Of a DNA stretch of 39,803 nucleotides, positions 17,639 through 31,501 are shown piece by piece (position 1 is the stretch's first letter; every line of letters begins with the position of its first letter). Where the stretch lies: the NCBI GenBank assembly GCA_031414955.1, contig JANOQV010000301.1, forward strand, positions 1 to 39,803. Reading direction: 5' to 3'. The notes under the pieces were generated by a model that was not told where the DNA came from, searched no databases, and saw only the letters and a program-made list of their open reading frames with translations. This stretch comes from Pedosphaera sp. (GTDB lineage Bacteria; Verrucomicrobiota; Verrucomicrobiia; Limisphaerales; SIBH01). The position numbers and the translations under genes were made by a program.

Positions 17639-18031
17639 TCATTCAATGCTCGTGACGTGCGGATACTTTCGGATGCGCCCGTCCGTGGTGACGACAGGAC
17701 AGTTGTTCAGCCGCGCGTGTGCCACGACCAGCCGGTCAATCGGATTGTCATGCAAGCCTTCCGGCAGGGAGTCTGCGGCCTCAATTAAAGACACGCCGAT
17801 GGGCACCACCGACCAATTGAACCGGGTAACGTGAAACTGAAACCACTCCGGCCACGGGCGATCCAATTGGAGCCGCTGCCGTCGGCAGGCGCAGGCGATT
17901 TCCCACGCGCTGACCGCCAGCACTTCCACTTCGGAGGAAGGATTCTCCAAATTGCGGCGCAACGATTCGCTCAACCGCTGCGGGGTGAGCGACAGAAAGA
18001 TGACAGCGCAGGTGTCGAGGACGAATTTCAC
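17639..18031 (-). CDS. vapC: PIN-domain (VapC-type) toxin
   Basis: VLDT..SAWEI..HDNPIDRLVVAHA..VVTTD; GTG start overlaps antitoxin stop. Confidence 0.9.
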   Translation of the reverse strand: MKFVLDTCAVIFLSLTPQRLSESLRRNLENPSSEVEVLAVSAWEIACACRRQRLQLDRPWPEWFQFHVTRFNWSVVPIGVSLIEAADSLPEGLHDNPIDRLVVAHARLNNCPVVTTDGRIRKYPHVTSIE

Positions 18032-18279
18032 GGGAAACTTTTGCCGGTGAGCATGTCCCAATCGCCTTGGGGAATCAGCGGCTCATCCACCGGGCCGAGA
18101 ATTTTCCCCGTGCCCGTGCCAGAGCCGAACTTGGCGCGGGTTTGTGTTCCGGCCACGGGCACGAGCTTCGCGACCGGCACGCTCTCCTTCATGACCACCA
18201 CTTCATCGCCGCGCTGCACGGCGGCGAGATGCTCGGCCAGGTGGCTTCCGAATTCAGCAATGGTCGCGGTCTTTGTCAT
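18028..18279 (-). CDS. Phd/YefM family antitoxin
   Basis: TIAEFGSHLAEHLAAVQRGDEVVVMK..PVAKLVP; directly upstream of the PIN gene. Confidence 0.88.
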   Translation of the reverse strand: MTKTATIAEFGSHLAEHLAAVQRGDEVVVMKESVPVAKLVPVAGTQTRAKFGSGTGTGKILGPVDEPLIPQGDWDMLTGKSFP

Positions 18280-18291
18280 GGCGGCACCGTA

Positions 18292-19836
18292 TCAGTCGCG
18301 CGGCGTGGCGGCGAGCGCGGGTTTGCTGGCGGCGTCAAGGGTTGCGGCTTTCGTTGGCGCGCTGGTCATCGCCACGATCTCCTTCACCGCAGGTTCAATC
18401 TTGTTCGTGAGCAAACGCGGCGCGATGCCGAAGACCAGCAGCGCCACGAGCAGCAGTGCGAAGGGCACTTTGCGCCACAGGCTTGCGTCACTAACCACCG
18501 GGAGATTTTCCGCCACGGGGCCGTGCAGGATATTCCGCACCGCGCGCAGCATGTAGATCGCCCCCACGACCAGCGCGCCCCACGCGGCGATGACCACCCA
18601 CGGAGAAAGTGTCTTCCACGCACCGAACATCACGAGCAGTTCGCCGGGGAAATTCGCGAAGCCGGGCAGGCCGCAGCCGGCCATCGCCGCCATGATCAGC
18701 GCGCTGCCGATGAAGGGCATCTTCTTGAGCAGTCCGCCGAGTTTGCTGATCTCCAGCGTGCCGGTTTGTTCGTTCAAGTAGCCGCTCAGGCCGAAACTCA
18801 GAGCCGCGAGCAGGCCATGCGCAATCATCACGAGCACCGTGCCGGTGATGCCGATGACGCTCAGGCTGGCGAGGCCGAGGAAGCAGAAACCCATGTGCGC
18901 CACGCTGGAATTGCCGAGCAGGAAATTAAAGTCGCGCTGCCGCATCGCCACCCAGCCGCAGTAAAGGATGTTGCCCAGCGCGAGCCACGCGATGAGATGC
19001 AGGTGAGCTTTGGCGACATCGGGTGCGAACGGAATCGCGATGCGGATGAGTCCGTAGAGTCCGAACTTCTTCAACACACCGGCATGCAGCATCGCTGTCG
19101 CGGCGGGCGCGGAGCCGTAGCCCAGCGGTGCCCAAGTGTGGAATGGGAACAGCGAGACCAAAATGCCGAAGCCAAAGAGCAGCAGCGGAAAGATGAACTT
19201 CTGTGATGCGACGGACAGCGGCGTGGTTTTCAAGAACGCCGTGAGTTGCACGATGTCGAACGTGCGCAGGCCGGACTGGAGATAGAGCGCGATGAGTCCG
19301 ACCAGCGCGATGAGCGCGCCCACGCTGAGATACATCGTGATCTGGAAGGTCGCGTAATTCTTCTGCTCCCCGCGTCCCCAGACGCCGATCATGATGAACG
19401 TCGGCACCAGCGCGAGTTCGTGGAACGCGTAGAAGAAGAACAGGTTGAGCGACGCGAACGCGCCGAGGATGCCACCCACCATCACGAGCAGCAGCAGGTA
19501 AAACATCTTGGCCTGCTTCTCGATGCGGTGCGAAACGCACGTCGCCGCGAACGCGACAATCGCGCCCATGAGCAGCAGGCCCACGTTGATGCCGTCCACG
19601 CCGACGTGATAGCTGATGCCGAGCGATTCCACCCACGGAGTCTTTTGCAGAAACTTGTAGCCATTCGTCGCCGTCGCGCTGTCGAACTTCGCGAACATCA
19701 CCACAGCCAGAATCATCGACACCAACGTGCTGCCCAACGCCACGAGGCGGATGACGAAGCGGTAGTCGCGCGGAATCAACGCGACGATCAGCGCTCCAAG
19801 GAAAGGGACGAGGATGATGTAGGTGAGGAGTGACAT
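18292..19836 (-). CDS. nuoM: NADH-quinone oxidoreductase subunit M
   Basis: YHVGVDG, FHELALVP, FPFHTWAP, LKKFGLYG, SSVAHMG, GLPGFANFPGE. Confidence 0.96.
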   Translation of the reverse strand: MSLLTYIILVPFLGALIVALIPRDYRFVIRLVALGSTLVSMILAVVMFAKFDSATATNGYKFLQKTPWVESLGISYHVGVDGINVGLLLMGAIVAFAATCVSHRIEKQAKMFYLLLLVMVGGILGAFASLNLFFFYAFHELALVPTFIMIGVWGRGEQKNYATFQITMYLSVGALIALVGLIALYLQSGLRTFDIVQLTAFLKTTPLSVASQKFIFPLLLFGFGILVSLFPFHTWAPLGYGSAPAATAMLHAGVLKKFGLYGLIRIAIPFAPDVAKAHLHLIAWLALGNILYCGWVAMRQRDFNFLLGNSSVAHMGFCFLGLASLSVIGITGTVLVMIAHGLLAALSFGLSGYLNEQTGTLEISKLGGLLKKMPFIGSALIMAAMAGCGLPGFANFPGELLVMFGAWKTLSPWVVIAAWGALVVGAIYMLRAVRNILHGPVAENLPVVSDASLWRKVPFALLLVALLVFGIAPRLLTNKIEPAVKEIVAMTSAPTKAATLDAASKPALAATPRD

Positions 19837-19839
19837 CGT

Positions 19840-20220
19840 TTAAGTGGCGGCGAGCTTTTGGATCGTGGCCTGCAAAAAATCGCGCGCGGCCTTTATGGTT
19901 TGCTTGGCTTCCTCATCGGTGACTGGCATGTCCGACTCGTAGTCGCCGGTCTGGCGCAAATTTTGCGCGTCAATCAGCGCGCGATGATGCGCCGGAGCCA
20001 TCTGCGCCGTGCGCGCGAACTCGACCCCGAACGCGCTGATCACGGCCTTGTGCGAGGAAAACGCCTGGCCGCGCTCCAGCAGCAAGGCTTCAGCAGCGTA
20101 AAACATCGCGTAGTAGGCGCGCGACGCCGCGAAGTCCGTATAGCCTTCCCGCAGCAATAGTTCGGATGCCGAGAGGCTTTTCTGGGCCTTGTTGATGAGG
20201 GCTTGCAGTTCCGGCTTCAC
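19840..20220 (-). CDS. HEPN domain protein (UPF0332-like)
   Basis: SRAYYAMFYAAEALL..SSHKAVISAF..LRQTGDY; GTGA overlap with MNT gene. Confidence 0.88.
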   Translation of the reverse strand: MKPELQALINKAQKSLSASELLLREGYTDFAASRAYYAMFYAAEALLLERGQAFSSHKAVISAFGVEFARTAQMAPAHHRALIDAQNLRQTGDYESDMPVTDEEAKQTIKAARDFLQATIQKLAAT

Positions 20221-20546
20221 AGCGGCACCGCCTCCCGTCGGACGTTGAGCAAGAATGGGCTGATGCCCTTTTTGAACCGTTCCTCAGACATGAACACACG
20301 AGAGATCACGGTCGCATGTTTGAGGCACAGATCGGAAATCGCCTCGGAGGTGCGCTCGCTCAACTTGTCCCTCTTCTCCTCGTCCCGCACCAGCACCAGC
20401 ACATCAATGTCTGAATCCGGCGTCTGCTCGCCGCGCGCGCAGGAGCCGTAGAGGTACGCGCCGACGAAATCGCCGCCCAGGCAGCGCACCAAGGCCGCGC
20501 GCACTTCGGGCAGAATCGTTTTCAAATCGTCAACGGTTCCGTTCAT
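20217..20546 (-). CDS. Minimal nucleotidyltransferase (MNT), putative antitoxin
   Basis: LYGSCARGEQTPDSDIDVLV (GSx10DxD); ATGA overlap with nuoL stop. Confidence 0.9.
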   Translation of the reverse strand: MNGTVDDLKTILPEVRAALVRCLGGDFVGAYLYGSCARGEQTPDSDIDVLVLVRDEEKRDKLSERTSEAISDLCLKHATVISRVFMSEERFKKGISPFLLNVRREAVPL

Positions 20547-22776: not shown

Positions 22777-23247
22777 TTATTTGGCCACAAAGAACGCAGA
22801 GAACACAGAGAGCACAGAAAGGAAAGGCAGCCAGCAGGCCAGTTTGTTCATCATGCCTTCCTCGGACGCGCTACCGTTGTTGAAGATGAACTTCCTGATT
22901 TGGAAGCGGTAGGAGCCGAAATTGATCAGCAGGCCGTGTTCGATGCGCGAGGCTTTAAGGTAGCCGAGCGTTTGGGCAACGTGCTCGTCCGCAATGGTCT
23001 TGGCTGCCTTCAGTTCCAGGATCAGGCAGTTGTCCACCAGCAGATCGGCGAAGTATTCACCGATGACGGTGCCATCCTCATCGTGAACTTTGAGCGGATG
23101 CTGCTGCTTCACATCGAAGCCGGCCTTCCGCAGCCGGTTCACCAGCGCGTTCTCATAAACTTTCTCCAAGTGCCCGTTGCCATGATAGACATGAATGTCG
23201 TAGGCCGTCTGCCTCACTACCGCGCTCAGTTCGTTAATCGTTTTCAT
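22777..23247 (-). CDS. GxxExxY protein (PD-(D/E)XK nuclease-like family)
   Basis: GHLEKVYENAL, ADLLVD..ILELKA, QTLGYLKA..GLLINFG; AAGGAG RBS upstream. Confidence 0.92.
   Translation of the reverse strand: MKTINELSAVVRQTAYDIHVYHGNGHLEKVYENALVNRLRKAGFDVKQQHPLKVHDEDGTVIGEYFADLLVDNCLILELKAAKTIADEHVAQTLGYLKASRIEHGLLINFGSYRFQIRKFIFNNGSASEEGMMNKLACWLPFLSVLSVFSAFFVAK
22784..22819 (+). repeat. Left arm of inverted 9-mer tandem repeat flanking the GxxExxY gene
   Basis: GCCACAAAG AACGCAGAG AACACAGAG AGCACAGAA. Confidence 0.85.
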
Positions 23248-23262
23248 GGTCGTTTCTCCTTT

Positions 23263-23289
23263 CTCTGTGTTCTTTGTGTTCTCTGTGGC
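23263..23289 (-). repeat. Right arm of inverted 9-mer tandem repeat flanking the GxxExxY gene
   Basis: Minus strand GCCACAGAG AACACAAAG AACACAGAG, beginning inside the nuoJ TAG stop. Confidence 0.85.
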
Positions 23290-23789
23290 TATTTCAATTC
23301 TTTCTTGCTCAGGAGAATCACGCCGACCATGGCGACGAGCAGCAGCACGGAGACGATTTCAAAGGGCAGCAGGTAGTTGGTGAACAGTTCCGTGCCGAGA
23401 TTCTTGGTCGCGCCTTCGAGCGTCGGCGTCTTGCCGGTGCCGATGCCGGAGAACCAAATTGTTTTGATGAGAATGCCCGCGATGGCCAGTACGGCGACGA
23501 GACCCGTGGCGATGCCGAAAGTGTTGAAGCGCCGCCGCTCCTCTTCCTTGATGTCGAGCAGCATAATCACGAACAGGAACAGCACCATGACCGCGCCGGC
23601 ATAGACGAGGATTTGCACCGCCGCGATGAAGAAGGCGTGCAGCGTCACGAACAGCCCGGCCAGCGCGCCCATCGTGAGCACGAGGAACATCGCGCTCGTG
23701 ACCGGGTTGCGGCTGAACGGATTGGCGACGACCATCAGGCCGAAGACCAGCGTCAGCAACGCGAAGAAGTAGAAGAAGAGGTCTTGCAT
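23289..23789 (-). CDS. nuoJ: NADH-quinone oxidoreductase subunit J
   Basis: RNPVTSAMFL, QILVYAGAVMVLFLFVIMLL, YLLPFEIVSVLLLVAMVG; start MQDLFF. Confidence 0.96.
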   Translation of the reverse strand: MQDLFFYFFALLTLVFGLMVVANPFSRNPVTSAMFLVLTMGALAGLFVTLHAFFIAAVQILVYAGAVMVLFLFVIMLLDIKEEERRRFNTFGIATGLVAVLAIAGILIKTIWFSGIGTGKTPTLEGATKNLGTELFTNYLLPFEIVSVLLLVAMVGVILLSKKELK

Positions 23790-23794
23790 GGCGG

Positions 23795-23953
23795 TTACGA
23801 TGCGCCTCCGACGAAACACCAAACACCAAACACCAAACACCAGAGAAACACCAAGCTCCAAACACCAACGACCGCATGAGCGCGCGACACACCGGTTGGA
23901 GCTTGGTGTTTGGAGCTTATCTGATGTTTGGTGTTTGGTGTTTGGTGCTTCAT
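23795..23953 (-). other. Putative 52-aa relay ORF spanning hairpin copy 1
   Basis: MKHQTPNTKH...FVGGAS*; start overlaps the stop of MEVLE* (23950-23967), which itself overlaps the nuoI stop; ends 5 nt before nuoJ ATG. Confidence 0.45.
23813..23952. repeat. ~140-bp palindromic heptamer-repeat element (MITE/IVS-like), copy 1
   Basis: (ACCAAAC)3 ACCAGAGAAAC ACCAAGC TCCAAAC ACCAA - 27-nt spacer - near-perfect inverted arm. Confidence 0.9.
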
Positions 23954-23966
23954 TCCAAGACTTCCA

Positions 23967-24539
23967 TCACGGCTTGACGGGAAACGCCTCCTGCTCCTTC
24001 GCTTCCTCCGCCTTGTGCTTCCACTTCTGAATGCCGGGGCTGACACCGCCGAGGGAGAGGAGCTTTTCCTTGTCGTAAATCATCTCGGCGCGAGTGAGGC
24101 CGGTGAGCGAATAATCCTTCTGCAAGAAGATCGCTTCCTCCGGGCAAACTTCCTGGCAGAAGCCGCAGAAGATGCAGCGGAGCATATTGATCTCGAACTC
24201 CTTCGGCATCTTCTCCGCATTGGTGCGGTCGGCGATTTCACCCGCAGGGCCGGGTGGCACGATGCGAATGGCCTTGGGCGGGCAGACGAATTCGCAGAGC
24301 TGGCACGAGACGCACTTGGTGTCGCTGTCCTGATCTTTCACGAGGTAGGGCGCGCCACGATAGCCCGCGCCCACGTTCCACTTGTGCTCGGGATAGAAGC
24401 CGTCCGAGGTTTCCTTCGCCGCCGTGTTCCCGCGAAAGAGCGTGTTGACGAAATGCTTCGAAGTCACCTTGATGCCGCCCGCAATCGCCGGCAGATACAG
24501 GCGCTCCCAGAAGCTCAGTTTTTTGCGTGGAACAATCAT
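23967..24539 (-). CDS. nuoI: NADH-quinone oxidoreductase subunit I
   Basis: Two 4Fe-4S motifs CVSCQLCEFVCP and CIFCGFCQEVCP; start MIVPRK overlaps nuoH stop (ATGA). Confidence 0.95.
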   Translation of the reverse strand: MIVPRKKLSFWERLYLPAIAGGIKVTSKHFVNTLFRGNTAAKETSDGFYPEHKWNVGAGYRGAPYLVKDQDSDTKCVSCQLCEFVCPPKAIRIVPPGPAGEIADRTNAEKMPKEFEINMLRCIFCGFCQEVCPEEAIFLQKDYSLTGLTRAEMIYDKEKLLSLGGVSPGIQKWKHKAEEAKEQEAFPVKP

Positions 24540-25672
24540 TTGGTTGACGTGATGGCCCACAGCACGATGGCCGTGATCAAGATGTTCGCCAGCGCGACCG
24601 GGATGAAACGGCGCCAGCCCAAATCCATGAGTTGGTCGTAGCGGAAGCGCGGCAACATCCAGCGGACCCAGATCATCACGCCCATCAGCGCCAGCATCTT
24701 GCCAATGAAGATCGCGATATGCGCGAGGCCCATGCCGATGCTCGACGCCGGATCGGAGAACGTGCCGAACGGCAGCGTCCAGCCGCCGAGGAAGAGCGTC
24801 ACGATCATGGAACAGCCGGCGATCATGGCCGCGTATTCGCCGAGGAAAAACAGGCCAAAGCGCATCGAGCTGTATTCGGTGTGATAGCCGCCCACGAGTT
24901 CGGTCTCGGACTCCGGCAAGTCGAACGGCAGTCGGTTTGTTTCCGCAAAGACGGCGACGAGGAAAATCACGAAGGCGATCGGCTGCTTGAAGATCATCCA
25001 GTCGAACAGGCTTTGCGACTGGTAGGCCACCATCCGGCTCAAATTTAGCCCACTGGTTCCAGCGAGGAAGTCCTGCCATGTCTTGCTCAGTTTCCCGGTG
25101 AAGCCATCGTCACCCACGAGCATGAACAGCGGCACGACGGAGAGGCCCATGGCGATCTCGTAGGAAATCATCTGCGCGCTGGAGCGGATGCCGCCGAGGA
25201 AGGGAAACTTGGAGTTCGATGCGTAGCCCGCCAGCACGATGCCATAGACCGCGAGCGACACGATGCCGAAGGTGTAGAGGATGCCCACGTTCAGGTCGGC
25301 GATGAGCATCTTCTGCGCGCCCATGAGTGAGCCAAAGGGGATGACCGCGAGCGTCAAGATCGACGGTGCCATCGCCACCGCAGGCGCGAGCCAGAAGTAA
25401 ACCTTGCGCACATGGCCGGGCGTGAAGTCCTCCTTCATGAACAGCTTCAGGCCGTCGGCGATGGGCTGGAAGATGCCGAGGCTGACGAGCCAGGGGCCGA
25501 GGACGGGAATCTTCGGCACGAAGGGCAGGGCGGTGCGATTGGGACCGACGCGGTCCTGAATCCACGCCGAAATTTTCCGCTCCGCCAGCACCGCGTAGGC
25601 GACAAAAGTCATCAGCACGGCGAAGACGCCGACGATCTTGACTGCGCTGAAAATGATAAAGGTCGAGTCCAT
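24536..25672 (-). CDS. nuoH: NADH-quinone oxidoreductase subunit H
   Basis: ERKISAWIQDRVGPNR, QPIADGLKL, AETNRLPFDLPESETELVGGYHTEYS, PRFRYDQLM. Confidence 0.97.
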   Translation of the reverse strand: MDSTFIIFSAVKIVGVFAVLMTFVAYAVLAERKISAWIQDRVGPNRTALPFVPKIPVLGPWLVSLGIFQPIADGLKLFMKEDFTPGHVRKVYFWLAPAVAMAPSILTLAVIPFGSLMGAQKMLIADLNVGILYTFGIVSLAVYGIVLAGYASNSKFPFLGGIRSSAQMISYEIAMGLSVVPLFMLVGDDGFTGKLSKTWQDFLAGTSGLNLSRMVAYQSQSLFDWMIFKQPIAFVIFLVAVFAETNRLPFDLPESETELVGGYHTEYSSMRFGLFFLGEYAAMIAGCSMIVTLFLGGWTLPFGTFSDPASSIGMGLAHIAIFIGKMLALMGVMIWVRWMLPRFRYDQLMDLGWRRFIPVALANILITAIVLWAITSTK

Positions 25673-25676
25673 CGCG

Positions 25677-27377
25677 TCAGATTTGCACCGTCACGCCGGT
25701 GTCGCCGAGGGCGGCCCACGTCAGGCCATTGAACGCAGTTACTTCCTTCGCCATCTGGTTGAACAATCCTTCGATGCTCACGAAGCCATTCTGGCCGGTG
25801 ACGTTGTGGACCAGCTCGTGCAGGAATTCCCACTCAGGCCGGGCATCGCCCTTAGGCTCCACGGCCTTCGTGAAGCGCTGCACCCGGCCTTTGACGTTCA
25901 CGAACGACCCGCGCTTCTCGGCATGAGCGCAGCCGGGCAACAGGTAATGCGCGGCCTCGGTCGTCTTGTTCGGCAAGATGTCGCTGACGATGAGCGTGTC
26001 GAGCTTGGCCAGCAGGTCGGTGCCGATGCCGCGCTTGGTTACGTCTTCGCCGAAGACAATGAGCGTCTTGATTTTCCCAGCGCGAATGCCGTCGGCAATC
26101 TTCGACAGGTTGATGCCGATCTCGGTGAAGGAGATTCCAATAAGCCGTGAGCCGGTGGTGTTGGGATTGCGGTCTGCGCTGAGCAGCAACTTGTCACCTT
26201 CGGCGATGCGCGGGACGGAATCCGTCATCGCGTCGAGCCGGGTCGCGAGCTTCTTGAGCAGGAACAGTTCTTCGTTGGTCTGGCGCGCCGAAGCGACGAT
26301 GGCAACAGAGCCTTGCGGCGCGCGCGCCAGCTTCTCAGAAATTTCCTTGATGACCGAACTCCAAGTGACGCCCTCCCCGACCCGAGACTTTGGACCTTGG
26401 ACCTTGGACAAACGCTTCTCGCTCCCAATCCACTTGTAGTTCAGTCGGCCCGCGTCGCACATCCAGCAGCCATTGACGGCGTCGTTCTCGCGCGGTTCGT
26501 AGCGATAGACTTTGTCTTCGCGAGAACCGACGACCACGTTGCAGCCGGTGCCGCAGCTCGTGCAGAGGCTCTTGGTTTCCTTGAGGAACCACACGCGCAT
26601 CTGAAAGCGAAAATCCTTCGAAGTGAGCGCACCCACTGGACAGATGTCCACGGTGTTGAGCGTGTAGTTGTTGTCGAACGGCTGGCCGGGGAACGCGGAG
26701 ATGGTGTTGTAGCTGCCGCGATTCACGATGCCGAGCGCGTCGTCGCCCACCACGTCCTTCGTGAAGCGGATGCAGCGTGTGCAAAGAACGCAACGCTCCG
26801 CGTCGAGCACGATGCGCGGCCCGAGGTCGATGCGCTTGGGCTTGTGAACCTTCGCCTCCACGAAGCGGCTCTCTGCCTGGCCGTAATCGACCGAGTATTC
26901 CTGGAGCTTGCATTCGCCGGCTTGATCGCAAATCGGGCAGTCGAGCGGATGATTGATGAGCAGCGATTCCAGCACGCCCTCGCGCATCTGCTTCACGCCC
27001 GGCGTGGCCGTGTAAATTTCCATGCCCGGCGAAATCGGCGTGGCGCAGGCGATGGCGGGGCGGGGCGACTTGGCGATCTTGGGCGAGCCGTCCTCGTTGA
27101 GCATCGGCTTGCGGTCCGGTCCCATCGCGGGCGTGCCGAACTCGACGAGGCACATGCGGCAATTGCCCGCAACCGGCAGCTTCGGATGATAGCAATAGTG
27201 CGGCACGTCCACCTTCGCGAGGTTCGTGGCCTGGATCATCGTGGTTGCCACCGGCTTGCCTGTGATTGGATCAGGCATGGTCTTCGGCACGGCGATGGCC
27301 TTGCCATCCACCTTCACGGTGATGGTCTCGACCGCCGGCGCGGCGGGCTTTGCTTCAATTGTCGCTGCGTTCGACAT
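25677..27377 (-). CDS. nuoG: NADH-quinone oxidoreductase subunit G (short form, ~566 aa)
   Basis: CYHPKL..GNCRMCLVE, NHPLDCPICDQAGECKLQ, CVLCTRCIRF, CTSCGTGC; start MSNAAT 1 nt after nuoF stop. Confidence 0.95.
   Translation of the reverse strand: MSNAATIEAKPAAPAVETITVKVDGKAIAVPKTMPDPITGKPVATTMIQATNLAKVDVPHYCYHPKLPVAGNCRMCLVEFGTPAMGPDRKPMLNEDGSPKIAKSPRPAIACATPISPGMEIYTATPGVKQMREGVLESLLINHPLDCPICDQAGECKLQEYSVDYGQAESRFVEAKVHKPKRIDLGPRIVLDAERCVLCTRCIRFTKDVVGDDALGIVNRGSYNTISAFPGQPFDNNYTLNTVDICPVGALTSKDFRFQMRVWFLKETKSLCTSCGTGCNVVVGSREDKVYRYEPRENDAVNGCWMCDAGRLNYKWIGSEKRLSKVQGPKSRVGEGVTWSSVIKEISEKLARAPQGSVAIVASARQTNEELFLLKKLATRLDAMTDSVPRIAEGDKLLLSADRNPNTTGSRLIGISFTEIGINLSKIADGIRAGKIKTLIVFGEDVTKRGIGTDLLAKLDTLIVSDILPNKTTEAAHYLLPGCAHAEKRGSFVNVKGRVQRFTKAVEPKGDARPEWEFLHELVHNVTGQNGFVSIEGLFNQMAKEVTAFNGLTWAALGDTGVTVQI
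26379..26409 (+). repeat. Period-7 tandem repeat in frame inside nuoG
   Basis: GACCCGA GACTTTG GACCTTG GACCTTG GAC; encodes SKVQGPKSRV on the minus strand. Confidence 0.7.
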
Positions 27378-27378
27378 G

Positions 27379-28779
27379 TTAATTCTTTGGGGCGGCTCCA
27401 CTCCGGCGCGCCTCGTCGGCCGCACCCTTGGCGATGAACTCGTCCTTAAACTTCCCGATGAAACTTTGCACCGGCCACGAGCAGGCTTCGCCGAAAGCGC
27501 AGATGGTGCGGCCGCCGGGAATGTTGTTCGCGATGCCGAGCAGGTAATCCGCGTCGGTCTTGCGGCCTTCACCATGTGAGAGACGATGGAGCGCCTTCGA
27601 CATCCAGAGCGAACCTTCACGGCAGGGCGTGCATTGGCCGCAGCTCTCGTGGGCGTAAAACTCGCTGATGTTCGCGAGCGCCTCGACGATATCGACCGAG
27701 TCGTCCATCACGATGATGGCGCTGGAGCCGGACATGGAGCCGGCGGCCGCGAGCGAGTCGAAGTCGTAGGGCAGATCGAGCATGTCGGTTTCGACCTCGG
27801 TCATGTTGCCATCTGCGCCCTTCTTCTTGAGCTTAAATTTCTCGCCGGCCTTGAAGACCTTCGCGGAAGAGCCGCCGGGAATGACGGCCTTCAACTTGCG
27901 ACCATCGCGCAGTCCGCCGCCGAAGTCTTGATGGAAAATCAATTCACCAATCGTGACCTTGCCGACTTCGATTTCGTAGTAGCCCGGTTTCTTGACCAAG
28001 CCGCTCAGACTCACGATGCGCGTGCCGGTGTTGTTCGGCGTGCCGAGCTTGGCGAACGCGCCCGCGCCCATCTCCACGATGTGCTTCACGTTGCAGAGGG
28101 TCTCGACGTTGTTGACGATCGTCGGGCACATCCACAGACCGAGGATGGCCGGGAAATAAGGCGGCTTGATGCGCGGATAAGGCCGCTTGCCTTCGAGTGA
28201 TTCGATCAGGCCCGTCTCTTCGCCGCAGATGTAAGCGCCCGCGCCGCGATGAACGTGAATCTCCAAATCGTAGCCGCTGCCAAGGATGTTCTTGCCGAGA
28301 AAGCCCTTCGCCCTCGCTTCCTTCAAAGCGCGATTCAGAATGCGGGCGCCCTCGGGCATTTCCCCGCGGATGTAGATGTAGGCCAGCTTCACGTCGTTCG
28401 CGAAGCAGGAGATGATCATCCCTTCAATCAACTGGTGCGGATCCTTGTGGATGATCTGCCGGTCCTTGAACGTGCCCGGCTCGGATTCGTCCGCATTGCA
28501 GATGAGGTAAATGGGCTTGCCGCTGCGGCGATCCACAAACGACCACTTCAGTCCGCACGAGAAACCCGCGCCGCCGCGCCCACGCAGCCCGGACGCTTTG
28601 ACGTCTTCGCGGATGACTTCCTGTGGGGAAAGTTTTTTGCCGTCTGGCAAATCCTTCGGCGCGGTGGCGAGCGCCTTCTTCAACGTCTCATAGCCGCCGT
28701 GGCGCAGGTAGCACTCGAGGTCGTTCGAGTACCCGGCGGCGTCGGCGTGCTTGAGAATGAGGCGGAATTGCTCGGGCAT
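27379..28779 (-). CDS. nuoF: NADH-quinone oxidoreductase subunit F
   Basis: SGLRGRGGAGF, NADESEPGTFKDR, GAGAYICGEETGLIESLEG, ESCGQCTPCREG. Confidence 0.97.
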   Translation of the reverse strand: MPEQFRLILKHADAAGYSNDLECYLRHGGYETLKKALATAPKDLPDGKKLSPQEVIREDVKASGLRGRGGAGFSCGLKWSFVDRRSGKPIYLICNADESEPGTFKDRQIIHKDPHQLIEGMIISCFANDVKLAYIYIRGEMPEGARILNRALKEARAKGFLGKNILGSGYDLEIHVHRGAGAYICGEETGLIESLEGKRPYPRIKPPYFPAILGLWMCPTIVNNVETLCNVKHIVEMGAGAFAKLGTPNNTGTRIVSLSGLVKKPGYYEIEVGKVTIGELIFHQDFGGGLRDGRKLKAVIPGGSSAKVFKAGEKFKLKKKGADGNMTEVETDMLDLPYDFDSLAAAGSMSGSSAIIVMDDSVDIVEALANISEFYAHESCGQCTPCREGSLWMSKALHRLSHGEGRKTDADYLLGIANNIPGGRTICAFGEACSWPVQSFIGKFKDEFIAKGAADEARRSGAAPKN

Positions 28780-28788
28780 ATCAGCTTC

Positions 28789-28816
28789 TTGACTCGGGGA
28801 TGAAACTCACTACCTT
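28789..28816 (+). promoter_or_regulatory. Putative sigma70 promoter for tRNA-Gln
   Basis: TTGACT-N16-TACCTT, ending 16 nt before the tRNA. Confidence 0.5.
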
Positions 28817-28832
28817 CTCGCGCCTCCGGCAC

Positions 28833-28906
28833 TGCCCGATGGTGTAACGGTAGCACAAGTGACTCTGAATCACTTTGTCATGGTTCAAATCCATGTCGGG
28901 CAGCCA
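28833..28906 (+). tRNA. tRNA-Gln (anticodon CTG)
   Basis: Acceptor TGCCCGA/TCGGGCA with U1-A72, discriminator G, encoded CCA; anticodon arm AGTGA-CTCTGAA-TCACT; T arm CATGG-TTCAAAT-CCATG. Confidence 0.96.
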
Positions 28907-28908
28907 AT

Positions 28909-29364
28909 TCATTTCCCACCCCGCTTGATCACTGCGTAGCGCTGGCGAATCAATTCCAAGTGCAGCAAATCTTTCGGGCGACCGATGGCGCGCTTGCTTT
29001 GCTCGATCAATTCGAGAGGCAACACGGCGACTTTGATTCCGTGCCATTCCATCCAAACCGCCTTTGAGAAAACGTGCTTGAAGGCCGAAAGGCCGGTCAC
29101 TTCATAAACAAAATTCACCATGGTTCCGTCGGCCAGTTCTACGACCGTGTTGCGCACCATCTGGGCGCCCTGCCGCACAGCAAGGTTGATCGCGCGCATA
29201 TAGTTGCGTGGCGACAGATCGATCCACAGATCCACATCAACTGTGGACCCTGGAACGCCTTGGAGATTCGCGGCTGACATGCCAATCACTTGGAACCGGA
29301 TCTTTTCACCGTCGAGCGCCCCCACAAGCCGAGCGAACGGAGATAATTCACGTTCATTTGCCAC
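28909..29364 (-). CDS. Nucleotidyltransferase-like protein (AbiEii/MenT/DUF6036-like), putative toxin
   Basis: VIGMSAANLQGVPGSTVDVDLW and SKRAIGRPKD motifs; GTG start 29364 preferred, ATG 29502 possible. Confidence 0.8.
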   Translation of the reverse strand: MANERELSPFARLVGALDGEKIRFQVIGMSAANLQGVPGSTVDVDLWIDLSPRNYMRAINLAVRQGAQMVRNTVVELADGTMVNFVYEVTGLSAFKHVFSKAVWMEWHGIKVAVLPLELIEQSKRAIGRPKDLLHLELIRQRYAVIKRGGK

Positions 29365-29483
29365 CGTTCGTCCGGCGTTGCGGCCGCGAACCGGGCGAAC
29401 AGGATTATTTCGTGCTCGTCGAGGCCGGGCATGCCCTTGAGTTTTCGATACACCTTTGGCCAATCTTTGAGCGTCGTTTTCAT
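29286..29483 (-). CDS. Small protein upstream of and overlapping the nucleotidyltransferase, putative antitoxin
   Basis: 65 aa MKTTLKDWPKVY..AATPDERWQMN; TPxER motif and position fit small partners of such NTases (inference). Confidence 0.6.
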   Translation of the reverse strand: MKTTLKDWPKVYRKLKGMPGLDEHEIILFARFAAATPDERWQMNVNYLRSLGLWGRSTVKRSGSK

Positions 29484-29508
29484 TTTTGCGCTTGGGTGCC
29501 ATGACGGG

Positions 29509-30045
29509 TCATTTGCACTTCGCCAAGATCTCATCCGCCGTGGCCTGCGAGACTCCTTCGTAGAAATCCTCGTTGCACATCATGACCGGGGCGGTGCCGC
29601 AGCTCGCGAGGCATTCGACAAACTCGACCGTGTATTTGCCGTCCTTCGTGGTCTGCAGGCCGTGCGCGTGCGAATCCAATTCCAGGCGCGAGCAAAAGTG
29701 TTTGTGCAGTTCGCCGGAGCCGCCCAGCGCGCAGCTCAGCGTGCGGCAGACTTTGAAGTGATGCTTCCCGACCGGCGCGCGTTGCAGCATCGGGTAGAAA
29801 GTCACGATCTCGTAGATGTTGATCGGCGACAGGCCCAGCTTCTTCGCTGCCCAGGTCACGGCCTCTTGCGGAATCCAGCCGTGCGCTTCCTGGATGGCGT
29901 GGAGCACCATGAGCGAGGCGGCGCGCTGCTTGTCTTCCGGGTAATGCGTGAGCAACTCGGCGACTTCCGCTTCGAGCGCGGGCGTGGTTTTCCACGTCGC
30001 GTCGGAGCGAAGGGCGTTCGGGATGGGATCGAAGTGTTCGTTCAT
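29509..30045 (-). CDS. nuoE: NADH-quinone oxidoreductase subunit E
   Basis: VTFYPM, VCRTLSCAL, VECLASCGTAPVM; start MNEHFD. Confidence 0.95.
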   Translation of the reverse strand: MNEHFDPIPNALRSDATWKTTPALEAEVAELLTHYPEDKQRAASLMVLHAIQEAHGWIPQEAVTWAAKKLGLSPINIYEIVTFYPMLQRAPVGKHHFKVCRTLSCALGGSGELHKHFCSRLELDSHAHGLQTTKDGKYTVEFVECLASCGTAPVMMCNEDFYEGVSQATADEILAKCK

Positions 30046-30197
30046 GCGCGTTGAAAAAGATCCAAGATCCAAGACCCAAGATCCAGAGAAGCTCCAAACA
30101 CCAAGCACCAAGCAATCCACGAGCGCTCAGGGCGCAGGTTGGAGCTTGGAACCTGGAATTTCTCTGGAGCTTGGAGCTTGGGGCTTGGTGTTTTCAT
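30042..30197 (-). other. Putative 51-aa relay ORF spanning hairpin copy 2
   Basis: MKTPSPKLQAPEKFQVPSSNLRPERSWIAWCLVFGASLDLGSWILDLFQRA*; ATGA overlap with both the nuoD stop and the nuoE start. Confidence 0.5.
30052..30196. repeat. ~145-bp palindromic heptamer-repeat element (MITE/IVS-like), copy 2
   Basis: TGAAAAAGA (TCCAAGA)2 CCCAAGA TCCAGAGAAGC TCCAAAC ACCAAGC ACCAA - 27-nt spacer - inverted arm ending TTTTCA. Confidence 0.9.
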
Positions 30198-31501
30198 CGA
30201 TCACACTCTCCCATCACAAAATCAATCGAGCCGAGGATGCTCACCACGTCACTCATCATGTGGCCGGGCAGAACATGGGACATGATGCTCAGGTTCACGA
30301 ATGAGGGCGCGCGGATCTTCATTCGATAGGGCGTGCCGCCGCCGCGCGAGTTGATGTAGAAACCCAGCTCGCCCTTGGGATTCTCCGCGCCGAAATAAAT
30401 TTCTCCGGGTGGCGCATTCACGCCCTGCGTCACGTTGATGAACTGGTGAATCAGTTCTTCCATGCTCGTCAGCACTTTGTTCTTCGAGGGCAAAGTGATC
30501 TTGCCGTCAGCGATGTTCACCGGCTCCTTGCCTTCGTTGTCGGGGCCGCCGGGAATGCGGTCGAGGCACTGGCGCACGATCCGCACACTTTGGCGCATCT
30601 CTTCCATGCGGACGAGGTAGCGATCGTAGCAATCACCCACCGAGCCGAGCGGTACGTCGAAATCCAGATCCTTGTAAACCAGATATGGGTTGGCCTTGCG
30701 CACGTCGTAATCAACGCCGCTGCCGCGCAGGTTCGGGCCGGTCAGGCCGTAATCAATCGCGTCTTCCTTGGAAATGATTCCAACATCCTTCGTGCGGTCC
30801 ACAAAGATGCGGTTGCGCGTGAGCAGCGTCTCCGTGTCGGCGATGGTGACGAGCACGCCATCGCAGAATTTACGCACCGCCGCAATCCATCCCGGCGGCG
30901 TGTCGCGCGAGACACCGCCGATGCGCGTGTAGCTCGTGGTGAACCGTGCCCCGGTCAGCGCCTCGAACAAATTGTAGAGCTTCTCACGTTCCGTGAACGT
31001 GTGCATGAACACGGTCAGCGCGCCCACGTCCATGGCGAAGCAGCCCACGCCCAGCAGATGCGCCGAAATGCGGGCCAGTTCGCAGCAGAGGACGCGGATG
31101 TATTGGCATCGGGGCGTGAGCTTCGTATCAATGCCCATCAGCTTCTCGACCGCCAGGGCGTAGGCCACGTTGCTGGCGAGGGGCGCGAGATAATCCAGTC
31201 GATCCGTGTAGGGGATGAACTGGGTGTAAGTCATGTTCTCGGCGATTTTCTCATCGCCACGGTGCAGATAACCCACGTCTGGAATGGCCTTGGTGATGAT
31301 CTCGCCATCCATCTCCAGCACGATGCGCAACACGCCATGCGTGGACGGATGCGACGGCCCCATGTTGAGGACCATCTTCTCGCCTTCCATCTCCGAGGCG
31401 TGAGTGGTGAGTTGGGCTTCCGTTTCGCCCAAGTTCTTCGCATCCGCCGCGGCAATTCGCGAAGGCGTGTCACGAAATGTGATTTCTTGAGTCGTGGCCA
31501 T
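30194..31501 (-). CDS. nuoD: NADH-quinone oxidoreductase subunit D
   Basis: NMGPSHPSTHGVLR, GYLHRG.EK, DRLDY, ENPKGELG, DFVMGECDR. Confidence 0.97.
   Translation of the reverse strand: MATTQEITFRDTPSRIAAADAKNLGETEAQLTTHASEMEGEKMVLNMGPSHPSTHGVLRIVLEMDGEIITKAIPDVGYLHRGDEKIAENMTYTQFIPYTDRLDYLAPLASNVAYALAVEKLMGIDTKLTPRCQYIRVLCCELARISAHLLGVGCFAMDVGALTVFMHTFTEREKLYNLFEALTGARFTTSYTRIGGVSRDTPPGWIAAVRKFCDGVLVTIADTETLLTRNRIFVDRTKDVGIISKEDAIDYGLTGPNLRGSGVDYDVRKANPYLVYKDLDFDVPLGSVGDCYDRYLVRMEEMRQSVRIVRQCLDRIPGGPDNEGKEPVNIADGKITLPSKNKVLTSMEELIHQFINVTQGVNAPPGEIYFGAENPKGELGFYINSRGGGTPYRMKIRAPSFVNLSIMSHVLPGHMMSDVVSILGSIDFVMGECDR

Follow-up and report, generated by a model that had tools for sequence, protein, structure and literature searches.

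Short open reading frames across inserts in the nuo operon of Pedosphaera as probable translational relays

How does an operon keep its ribosome traffic when hairpins and a backwards tRNA gene lie between its genes? The question is raised by the nuoB-N operon of Pedosphaera sp., located on the minus strand of a 39,803-nt stretch of DNA (contig JANOQV010000301.1 of assembly GCA_031414955.1, positions 1 to 39,803; the window). Inserts are present at six nuo junctions: D/E, E/F, I/J, J/K, L/M and M/N. The D/E and I/J inserts are hairpins, and the E/F insert is a block of two open reading frames (ORFs) and a tRNA gene. The first-pass annotation had suggested that mini-ORFs bridge the inserts and hand ribosomes on to the next gene. 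The comparative analysis makes it probable that these mini-ORFs are translational relays, acting by termination–reinitiation and kept by selection. The case appears strongest for the hairpins, good for the entry into the tRNA and weak for an ORF of 10 amino acids.

Mini-ORFs at the nuo junctions

Gene identities were taken from NCBIfam. The genes, hairpins and mini-ORFs at the D/E, E/F and I/J junctions are:

30194..31501, minus strand: nuoD, whose final ATGA directly overlaps the nuoE start in empty alleles of the genus
30057..30193, no strand: heptamer-repeat hairpin 2, CCAAG-type family, minimum free energy −70.2 kcal/mol, z −5.05
30042..30197, minus strand: relay ORF 1, 51 amino acids, −4 overlap at both ends
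29509..30045, minus strand: nuoE
29480..29512, minus strand: ORF of 10 amino acids, linking the nuoE stop to an ORF of 65 amino acids, ATGA overlap at both ends
28781..28912, minus strand: relay ORF 3, 43 amino acids, antisense of tRNA-Gln in the sole stop-free frame, ending 1 nt before nuoF (28779)
27379..28779, minus strand: nuoF
23967..24539, minus strand: nuoI
23950..23967, minus strand: ORF of 5 amino acids, TGATG overlap with nuoI and ATGA overlap with relay ORF 4
23813..23951, no strand: heptamer-repeat hairpin 1, 57-nt arms, minimum free energy −104.9 kcal/mol, z −10.23
23795..23953, minus strand: relay ORF 4, 52 amino acids, ending 5 nt before nuoJ (23789)
23289..23789, minus strand: nuoJ

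All mini-ORFs claimed for these junctions were recovered with the same lengths, coordinates and neighbours. The ATG of relay ORF 1 overlaps the TGA of nuoD, and its own TGA overlaps the ATG of nuoE (30045). Both hairpins are real; the z-scores compare their folding energies with those of 200 shuffled sequences.

Bridging across the genome and in relatives

Bridging was counted genome-wide on 4671 genes, called with an own codon and start model that reproduced most nuo starts. A control was needed because empty D/E alleles of the genus consist of an ATGA overlap from the outset, 41% of the genes start with ATGA, and the heptamer repeats are poor in stop codons, so that bridging by chance might come close to one in three. 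In the control, both ends of the insert were kept and the frame was shifted by one base in the middle.

The two nuo hairpins belong to a family with 107 paired copies in the genome, of which 103 are short. Short copies lie mainly between co-directional genes (83; 11 are between divergent genes, 1 between convergent genes and 8 at contig ends). Background gaps of 100–400 nt are 1036 co-directional, 363 divergent and 202 convergent. Among 85 co-directional copies analysed, 62 are close to both genes and are called tight. For the tight hairpins, the downstream start was forced past the right arm, an ATG from −4 to +16 relative to the upstream stop counted as an entry, and the exit was allowed to +16. 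An entry ATG was present in 38 of them: 28 bridge, 6 overrun, 3 fuse with the downstream gene and 1 stops early. After the frame shifts, bridging drops to 2 and 1, and early stops rise to 13 and 11. A genome-wide comparison with controls had been called for by the first-pass annotation, and it shows that both ends are phased to the neighbouring genes beyond chance. The same holds with any entry start codon (36/54 bridged versus 4 and 5 in the shifted frames). A stricter set of 32 gave 23/23 versus 1 and 1, but this set omits in-frame fusions, which moves its null nearer to one half. Other hairpin families are bridged in 9/15 tight cases (controls 0 and 4) and 8/21 loose cases (controls 2 and 3).

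Expected numbers, here and for the relatives, come from a three-frame null, which replaced frameshift P values that were too generous. Among co-directional gaps of 60–300 nt, those with a strong hairpin were bridged from an ATG in 36/109 cases with 14.9 expected (P 1.6e-12). Hairpin-free gaps showed 51/876 with 40.9 expected (P 0.024) and, with any start codon, 121 versus 115 expected (P 0.24). An entry ATG was found at 62/109 co-directional gaps versus 6/52 convergent ends.

At each site, an open frame in the right phase has been kept, but not a particular peptide. The phase is not built into one fixed element, because frame, length and offsets vary among the copies and ATGs are few between divergent genes (6/22 ends). 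The 36 bridged copies have 26 different lengths. Relative to the left landmarks of the element, the relay uses the three frames 12, 9 and 6 times (9 unscored); relative to the right landmarks, 17, 7 and 7 times (5 unscored). Entry offsets of bridged heptamer elements range from −4 to +13 and exit offsets from −4 to +5; −4 overlaps at both ends occur in only 13/36 copies. Exits of the 37 bridged cases listed are at −4 in 24 and at 0 to +5 in 13.

The relatives provided a second data set. Genomes of the order yielded 709 verrucomicrobial nuo junctions, and 579 were kept with starts fixed by homology; 130 with uncertain starts or ends were dropped. These contained 123 inserts of 60–300 nt, and near-duplicates were removed before bridging was counted. 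Hairpin inserts, from several unrelated repeat families, were bridged in 20/28 cases with 9.1 expected. Numbers for tRNA inserts were 22/37 with 10.0 expected (any start codon) and for other inserts 27/53 with 12.4 expected, although this last set includes small real genes.

Filled and empty alleles at D/E and G/H are evidence of mobility. Among 11 loci of the genus, 2 contain an insert at D/E and 9 have an empty site. The window insert is flanked by ATGA at both ends, and the empty site is a single ATGA overlap. At G/H in the genus, 7 alleles are empty and 4 are filled. The end of nuoG reads ATC-TGA in 7/7 empty and ATA-TGA in 4/4 filled alleles, and ATA accounts for 1.3% of isoleucine codons. 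This synonymous change from ATC to ATA creates the entry ATG: the host gene changes with the insert.

Longer inserts occur as well. The nuo junctions of the order are hot spots, with inserts above 300 nt at 79/579 (loci L031–L131). Closely spaced ORFs form an unbroken chain in 61 of these 79, a descriptive count with a wide window and without control. Five Gemmatimonadota loci (L132, L134, L139, L142 and L147) have short-unit repeat inserts at nuo D/E and E/F that look bridged in the native frame, with starts that are not confident; such inserts thus reach a second phylum. Gemmatimonadota and Bacteroidota loci were left out of all counts due to mostly unreliable starts.

The nuoE/nuoF block and the other inserts

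The block between nuoE and nuoF contains a resident tRNA gene and a cassette:

28833..28906, plus strand: tRNA-Gln(CTG), the sole one called in the assembly (54 tRNAs called), at the same position across the order
28789..28816, plus strand: putative tRNA promoter (TTGACT, 16 nt, TACCTT), 8/12 consensus positions, below the scan threshold
28909..29502, minus strand: nucleotidyltransferase-like ORF, 197 amino acids, ATG 6 nt past the nuoE stop
29286..29483, minus strand: ORF of 65 amino acids, putative antitoxin-like partner, lying within the long nucleotidyltransferase ORF in a different frame

The first-pass annotation had described relay ORF 3 as crossing an antisense tRNA. The tRNA does lie antisense to nuo, but it is a functional-looking gene. 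It matches Rfam RF00005 over the full length (64 bits, positions 1–71 of 71). No promoter above threshold was found in a scan of the tRNA region; the −35 word of the likely promoter is conserved in most relatives. Since the tRNA and this promoter (28789–28906, plus strand) are oriented against nuo, the nuo mRNA carries an exact antisense copy of the tRNA.

In 56 loci, the gene stands in reverse orientation between nuoE and nuoF, and as a rule a single frame of its antisense strand is free of stops. The tRNA lies no more than 160 nt from the nuoE stop in 43 loci, and in 37 of them it is crossed by an ORF that begins at this stop, versus 8 and 4 in the shifted controls. With ATG starts alone, the numbers are 30 versus 7 and 3, and by distinct layouts 26/32. 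The usual antisense frame is closed by the tRNA sequence in 7 loci, where a single other frame stays open; 7/7 use that other frame. On a NuoF tree with 53 rows, six of these loci fall into two supported clades and the seventh lies outside the tree. The root is uncertain; at least one frame switch took place, and probably more. The exit is less strictly kept. The ORF stops within 5 nt of nuoF in 20/51 loci (controls 0 and 3) and within 16 nt in 29/51 (controls 3 and 15). In the genus, the gap to nuoF is 1 or 2 nt in 8/9 loci and the ninth holds a further inserted gene; outside the genus, exit phasing is loose.

The cassette was read by eye in 8 loci. The nucleotidyltransferase frame opens with an ATG at −4 to +11 of the nuoE stop in 8/8, one with an internal frameshift. 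Four loci lead into the small ORF through a separate mini-ORF and two through an in-frame GTG extension; the other two have no such entry. The long form of the nucleotidyltransferase is open: 87/120 homologues among the matches listed have at least 185 amino acids. Its label rests on look-alikes (DUF2204, DUF6036 and AbiEii), which suggest a nucleotidyltransferase-like protein. The small ORF (29286..29483) had no Pfam or NCBIfam match. The ORF of 10 amino acids was present as claimed, but it is the weakest case. The chain to nuoF can do without it, since an ATG at the nuoE stop already opens the nucleotidyltransferase frame; the role of the short ORF may just be loading the gene of 65 amino acids. 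This small ORF is conserved inside the first 70 codons of the nucleotidyltransferase-like ORF, in another frame, an apparent case of dual coding. At locus L048, the nucleotidyltransferase is absent, and the small-ORF homologue, beginning on the nuoE stop, extends without a change of frame over the antisense tRNA to form a single ORF of 125 amino acids.

The remaining inserts of the window bear genes:

22777..23289, minus strand: J/K insert with a GxxExxY gene (22777–23247) within 40-nt inverted repeats, stop 3 nt before nuoK
19840..20546, minus strand: nucleotidyltransferase (MNT)–HEPN pair between nuoL and nuoM, spacings −4, −4 and +3
17639..18279, minus strand: Phd-like/PIN pair between nuoM and nuoN, spacings +12, −4 and +1

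The GxxExxY ORF reads through the right arm of its inverted repeats to end 3 nt before nuoK, and it has an AAGGAG run 8 nt upstream of its ATG. The 41 nt between the nuoJ stop and this gene contain no start codon and form an unbridged gap. The claim that every non-coding insertion is bridged holds from nuoD to nuoJ but not for this gap just beyond. Locus L034 has a similar J/K insert. Within nuoG, a short in-frame heptamer-like run with repeated GTCCAA-type words is present at 26400–26380 (minus strand).

In this genome and in the family, four-helix-bundle (PF05635) and GxxExxY (TIGR04256) genes between operon genes are flanked by similar arms of 7–9-nt units. They differ from the bridged hairpins, which hold no gene: by eye, gene-bearing elements often have runs resembling Shine–Dalgarno (SD) sites and unbridged single arms. 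A search for cargo-bearing CCAAG hairpins returned one partial case only, and four long repeat pairs considered as four-helix-bundle elements turned out not to be such. On contig C241 near 17870–18530 (L168), the upstream stop is directly followed by a CCAAG heptamer arm that forms the beginning of a four-helix-bundle gene, and a complete hairpin of this family lies behind the gene; the arrangement may link gene-bearing elements to empty ones.

Mechanism, alternatives and precedents

SD-like words precede 11.6% of 3964 starts compared with 11.9% in the background, which is no enrichment; the 16S rRNA, with its anti-SD, is missing from the assembly. Some Verrucomicrobia are listed as SD-scarce in PMC10783764. 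Translational coupling in Escherichia coli falls by 80–100% at a distance of 38 nt according to PMC10666635, and an unbridged hairpin of 150 nt should therefore uncouple its neighbours. Downstream operon genes without SD sites would rely on ribosomes passed on from the preceding gene. This hand-over would be broken by a long hairpin, or by a tRNA gene in reverse orientation together with its promoter, and structured, untranslated RNA would be left. Such inserts would persist mostly when a start codon is located at the upstream stop, a stop-free frame crosses the insert, and this frame ends at the downstream start. Ribosomes would then terminate, reinitiate, read through and unwind the stem, and reinitiate again at the next gene, with relief of polarity as the presumed benefit. 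The core idea of the first-pass annotation, selection for an open frame coupled at both ends with an irrelevant peptide, is well supported by the comparative tests.

Several observations weigh against relays as a general rule. An entry ATG is lacking in 24/62 tight hairpins, and 8/62 have no start codon of any kind near the upstream stop. In the relatives, 8/28 hairpin inserts are unbridged, and the tRNA ORF stops more than 16 nt from nuoF in 22/51 loci. The first-pass claim that insertions are retained only when they relay is too strict in view of such cases: bridging is a strong tendency and not an absolute rule. Hairpin families other than the heptamer family are bridged less often, and gaps of 25–59 nt have a weak excess only (12/59 versus 6 and 8). 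Across the order, stop avoidance in the spacer between tRNA and nuoF was not significant (21/74 stops in frame, p 0.22). The ORF of 10 amino acids can be bypassed through the nucleotidyltransferase frame. A preceding CAG is common to three of the four ATA alleles of nuoG, and one origin is possible. The relatives are not independent, and kinship inflates their P values; gene starts in this genome come from the own caller.

The alternative that survives best, though unlikely as a full account, is that translation is selected to cover the RNA, against Rho loading, cutting of long stems by RNase III or pairing of the tRNA with its antisense. The downstream gene would initiate afresh, and the exit phase would only avoid overrunning the next start. 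The genome encodes Rho and RNase III, the stems are long, and at the tRNA entry and crossing (37/43) are kept far better than the close exit (20/51). Two rho-like genes are present in the assembly (contigs C142 and C242), one over and one under the family cut-off. The hairpins argue against this explanation: their exits are tight, with all 37 bridged cases listed between −4 and +5 although +16 was allowed. The antisense tRNA stretch is also not unusually stable (z −1.31). RNA coverage overlaps with the relay explanation, and it may fit the tRNA while reinitiation fits the hairpins; as the main driver it is most plausible for the tRNA.

Much less probable is a by-product without selection, in which insertion into a native ATGA duplicates four bases, the heptamer repeats are poor in stops and a third of the inserts bridge by chance. 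The empty D/E site, the ATGA at both ends of the window insert, the frequency of ATGA starts and the 13/36 elements with −4 at both ends agree with it. The frame controls keep these ends unchanged and still cut bridging from 28 to 2 and 1. Moreover, 23/36 elements need at least one end that duplication does not supply, and the tRNA is not a recent insert but shows frame covariation. A pure duplication by-product is largely refuted by the frame-shift controls for the heptamers, the stricter set and the tRNA.

About equally improbable, or slightly more so, is a design of the elements themselves, with mobile elements that carry their own start, frame and stop in a fixed phase, as in mycobacterial interspersed repetitive units (MIRUs), and bridge by their mode of insertion. 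Many elements do open with similar A-rich words after the ATG, and the C241 four-helix-bundle gene opens with the same heptamer arm. Length, entry, exit and frame relative to internal landmarks all vary, however, most arms of copies between divergent genes are without an ATG, and no mobilising enzyme was identified. A function of the relay peptides is hardly credible and was rejected: heptamer-family peptides do resemble each other in being polar in the first half and hydrophobic in the second, but each of the three frames occurs, the peptides encoded at equivalent junctions by unrelated repeat families and by the tRNA are themselves unrelated, and none has a Pfam or NCBIfam match.

Translational relays have precedents. 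MIRUs insert at start codons with a coupled ORF (Supply et al. 1997, as summarised in PMC12548453), and the relay idea is already the published reading of MIRUs in that summary. By description, not by sequence, the system here would work like MIRUs: a repeated element lies between co-directional genes (83/103 short copies), and an internal sense ORF is coupled to the downstream start. Insertion at a start codon with −4 overlaps fits the duplicated ATGA of D/E, but not I/J and G/H. In contrast to MIRUs, the inserts here come from several hairpin families that are unrelated to each other and vary in length; in most, one end or both deviate from −4, and the phase is site-specific. A host tRNA gene is bridged likewise, and host codons change with the insert. 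MIRUs have few fixed lengths, unlike the elements described here. Integron attC and attI1 sites contain short ORFs (ORF-11 and attC ORFs) that relieve a stem-loop barrier and promote translation of the gene downstream by termination–reinitiation, as tested experimentally, with little importance of the peptide (PMC8876359). The likeness is a short ORF across a stem-loop whose peptide sequence matters little; the difference is its occurrence in a housekeeping operon and at dozens of genome sites, apparently without integrase or cassette array. No integrase was found among 25 ORFs scanned around the operon, and no genome-wide search was made. Operons that encode heteromeric complexes, complex I among them, are enriched in termination–reinitiation at −4/−1 overlaps (PMC10666635). 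The spacings are those of the relays, but ordinary gene pairs are coupled there, whereas an extra, throw-away ORF restores the coupling here. A literature search, with subscription papers and supplements outside its scope, found no account of these elements, of a general relay rule or of a bridged tRNA, and none of host-side changes tracking inserts. From the sequence comparisons, the phenomenon appears selected, real and general across inserts, and broader than the known trick of MIRUs and attC sites.

Scanning versus reinitiation is still argued in the coupling literature (PMC10666635, PMC12548453). The relays would amount to a natural experiment with many replicates, indicating that a stop beside the start is required for reinitiation and that ribosomes do not simply scan over 100–200 nt of structured RNA. 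They would account for core operons of a lineage that collects many inserts while keeping expression, and they predict translated but meaningless small ORFs that may mislead small-protein catalogues. At the tRNA junction, the same logic would apply to a resident essential gene and not just to mobile repeats. Taken together, a wider reading is tenable but tentative: in the SD-scarce Pedosphaerales/Limisphaerales, unbroken ribosome traffic along operons may be a genome-wide constraint. Each genome would produce dozens of throw-away peptides, including one read from the strand opposite an essential tRNA gene. The spacing between nuoE and the tRNA would have co-varied with the tRNA sequence to hold the frame open, and flanking genes would change codons for an entry ATG. 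Such a filter would determine which repeats, nuclease genes and toxin–antitoxin pairs are able to settle in core operons.

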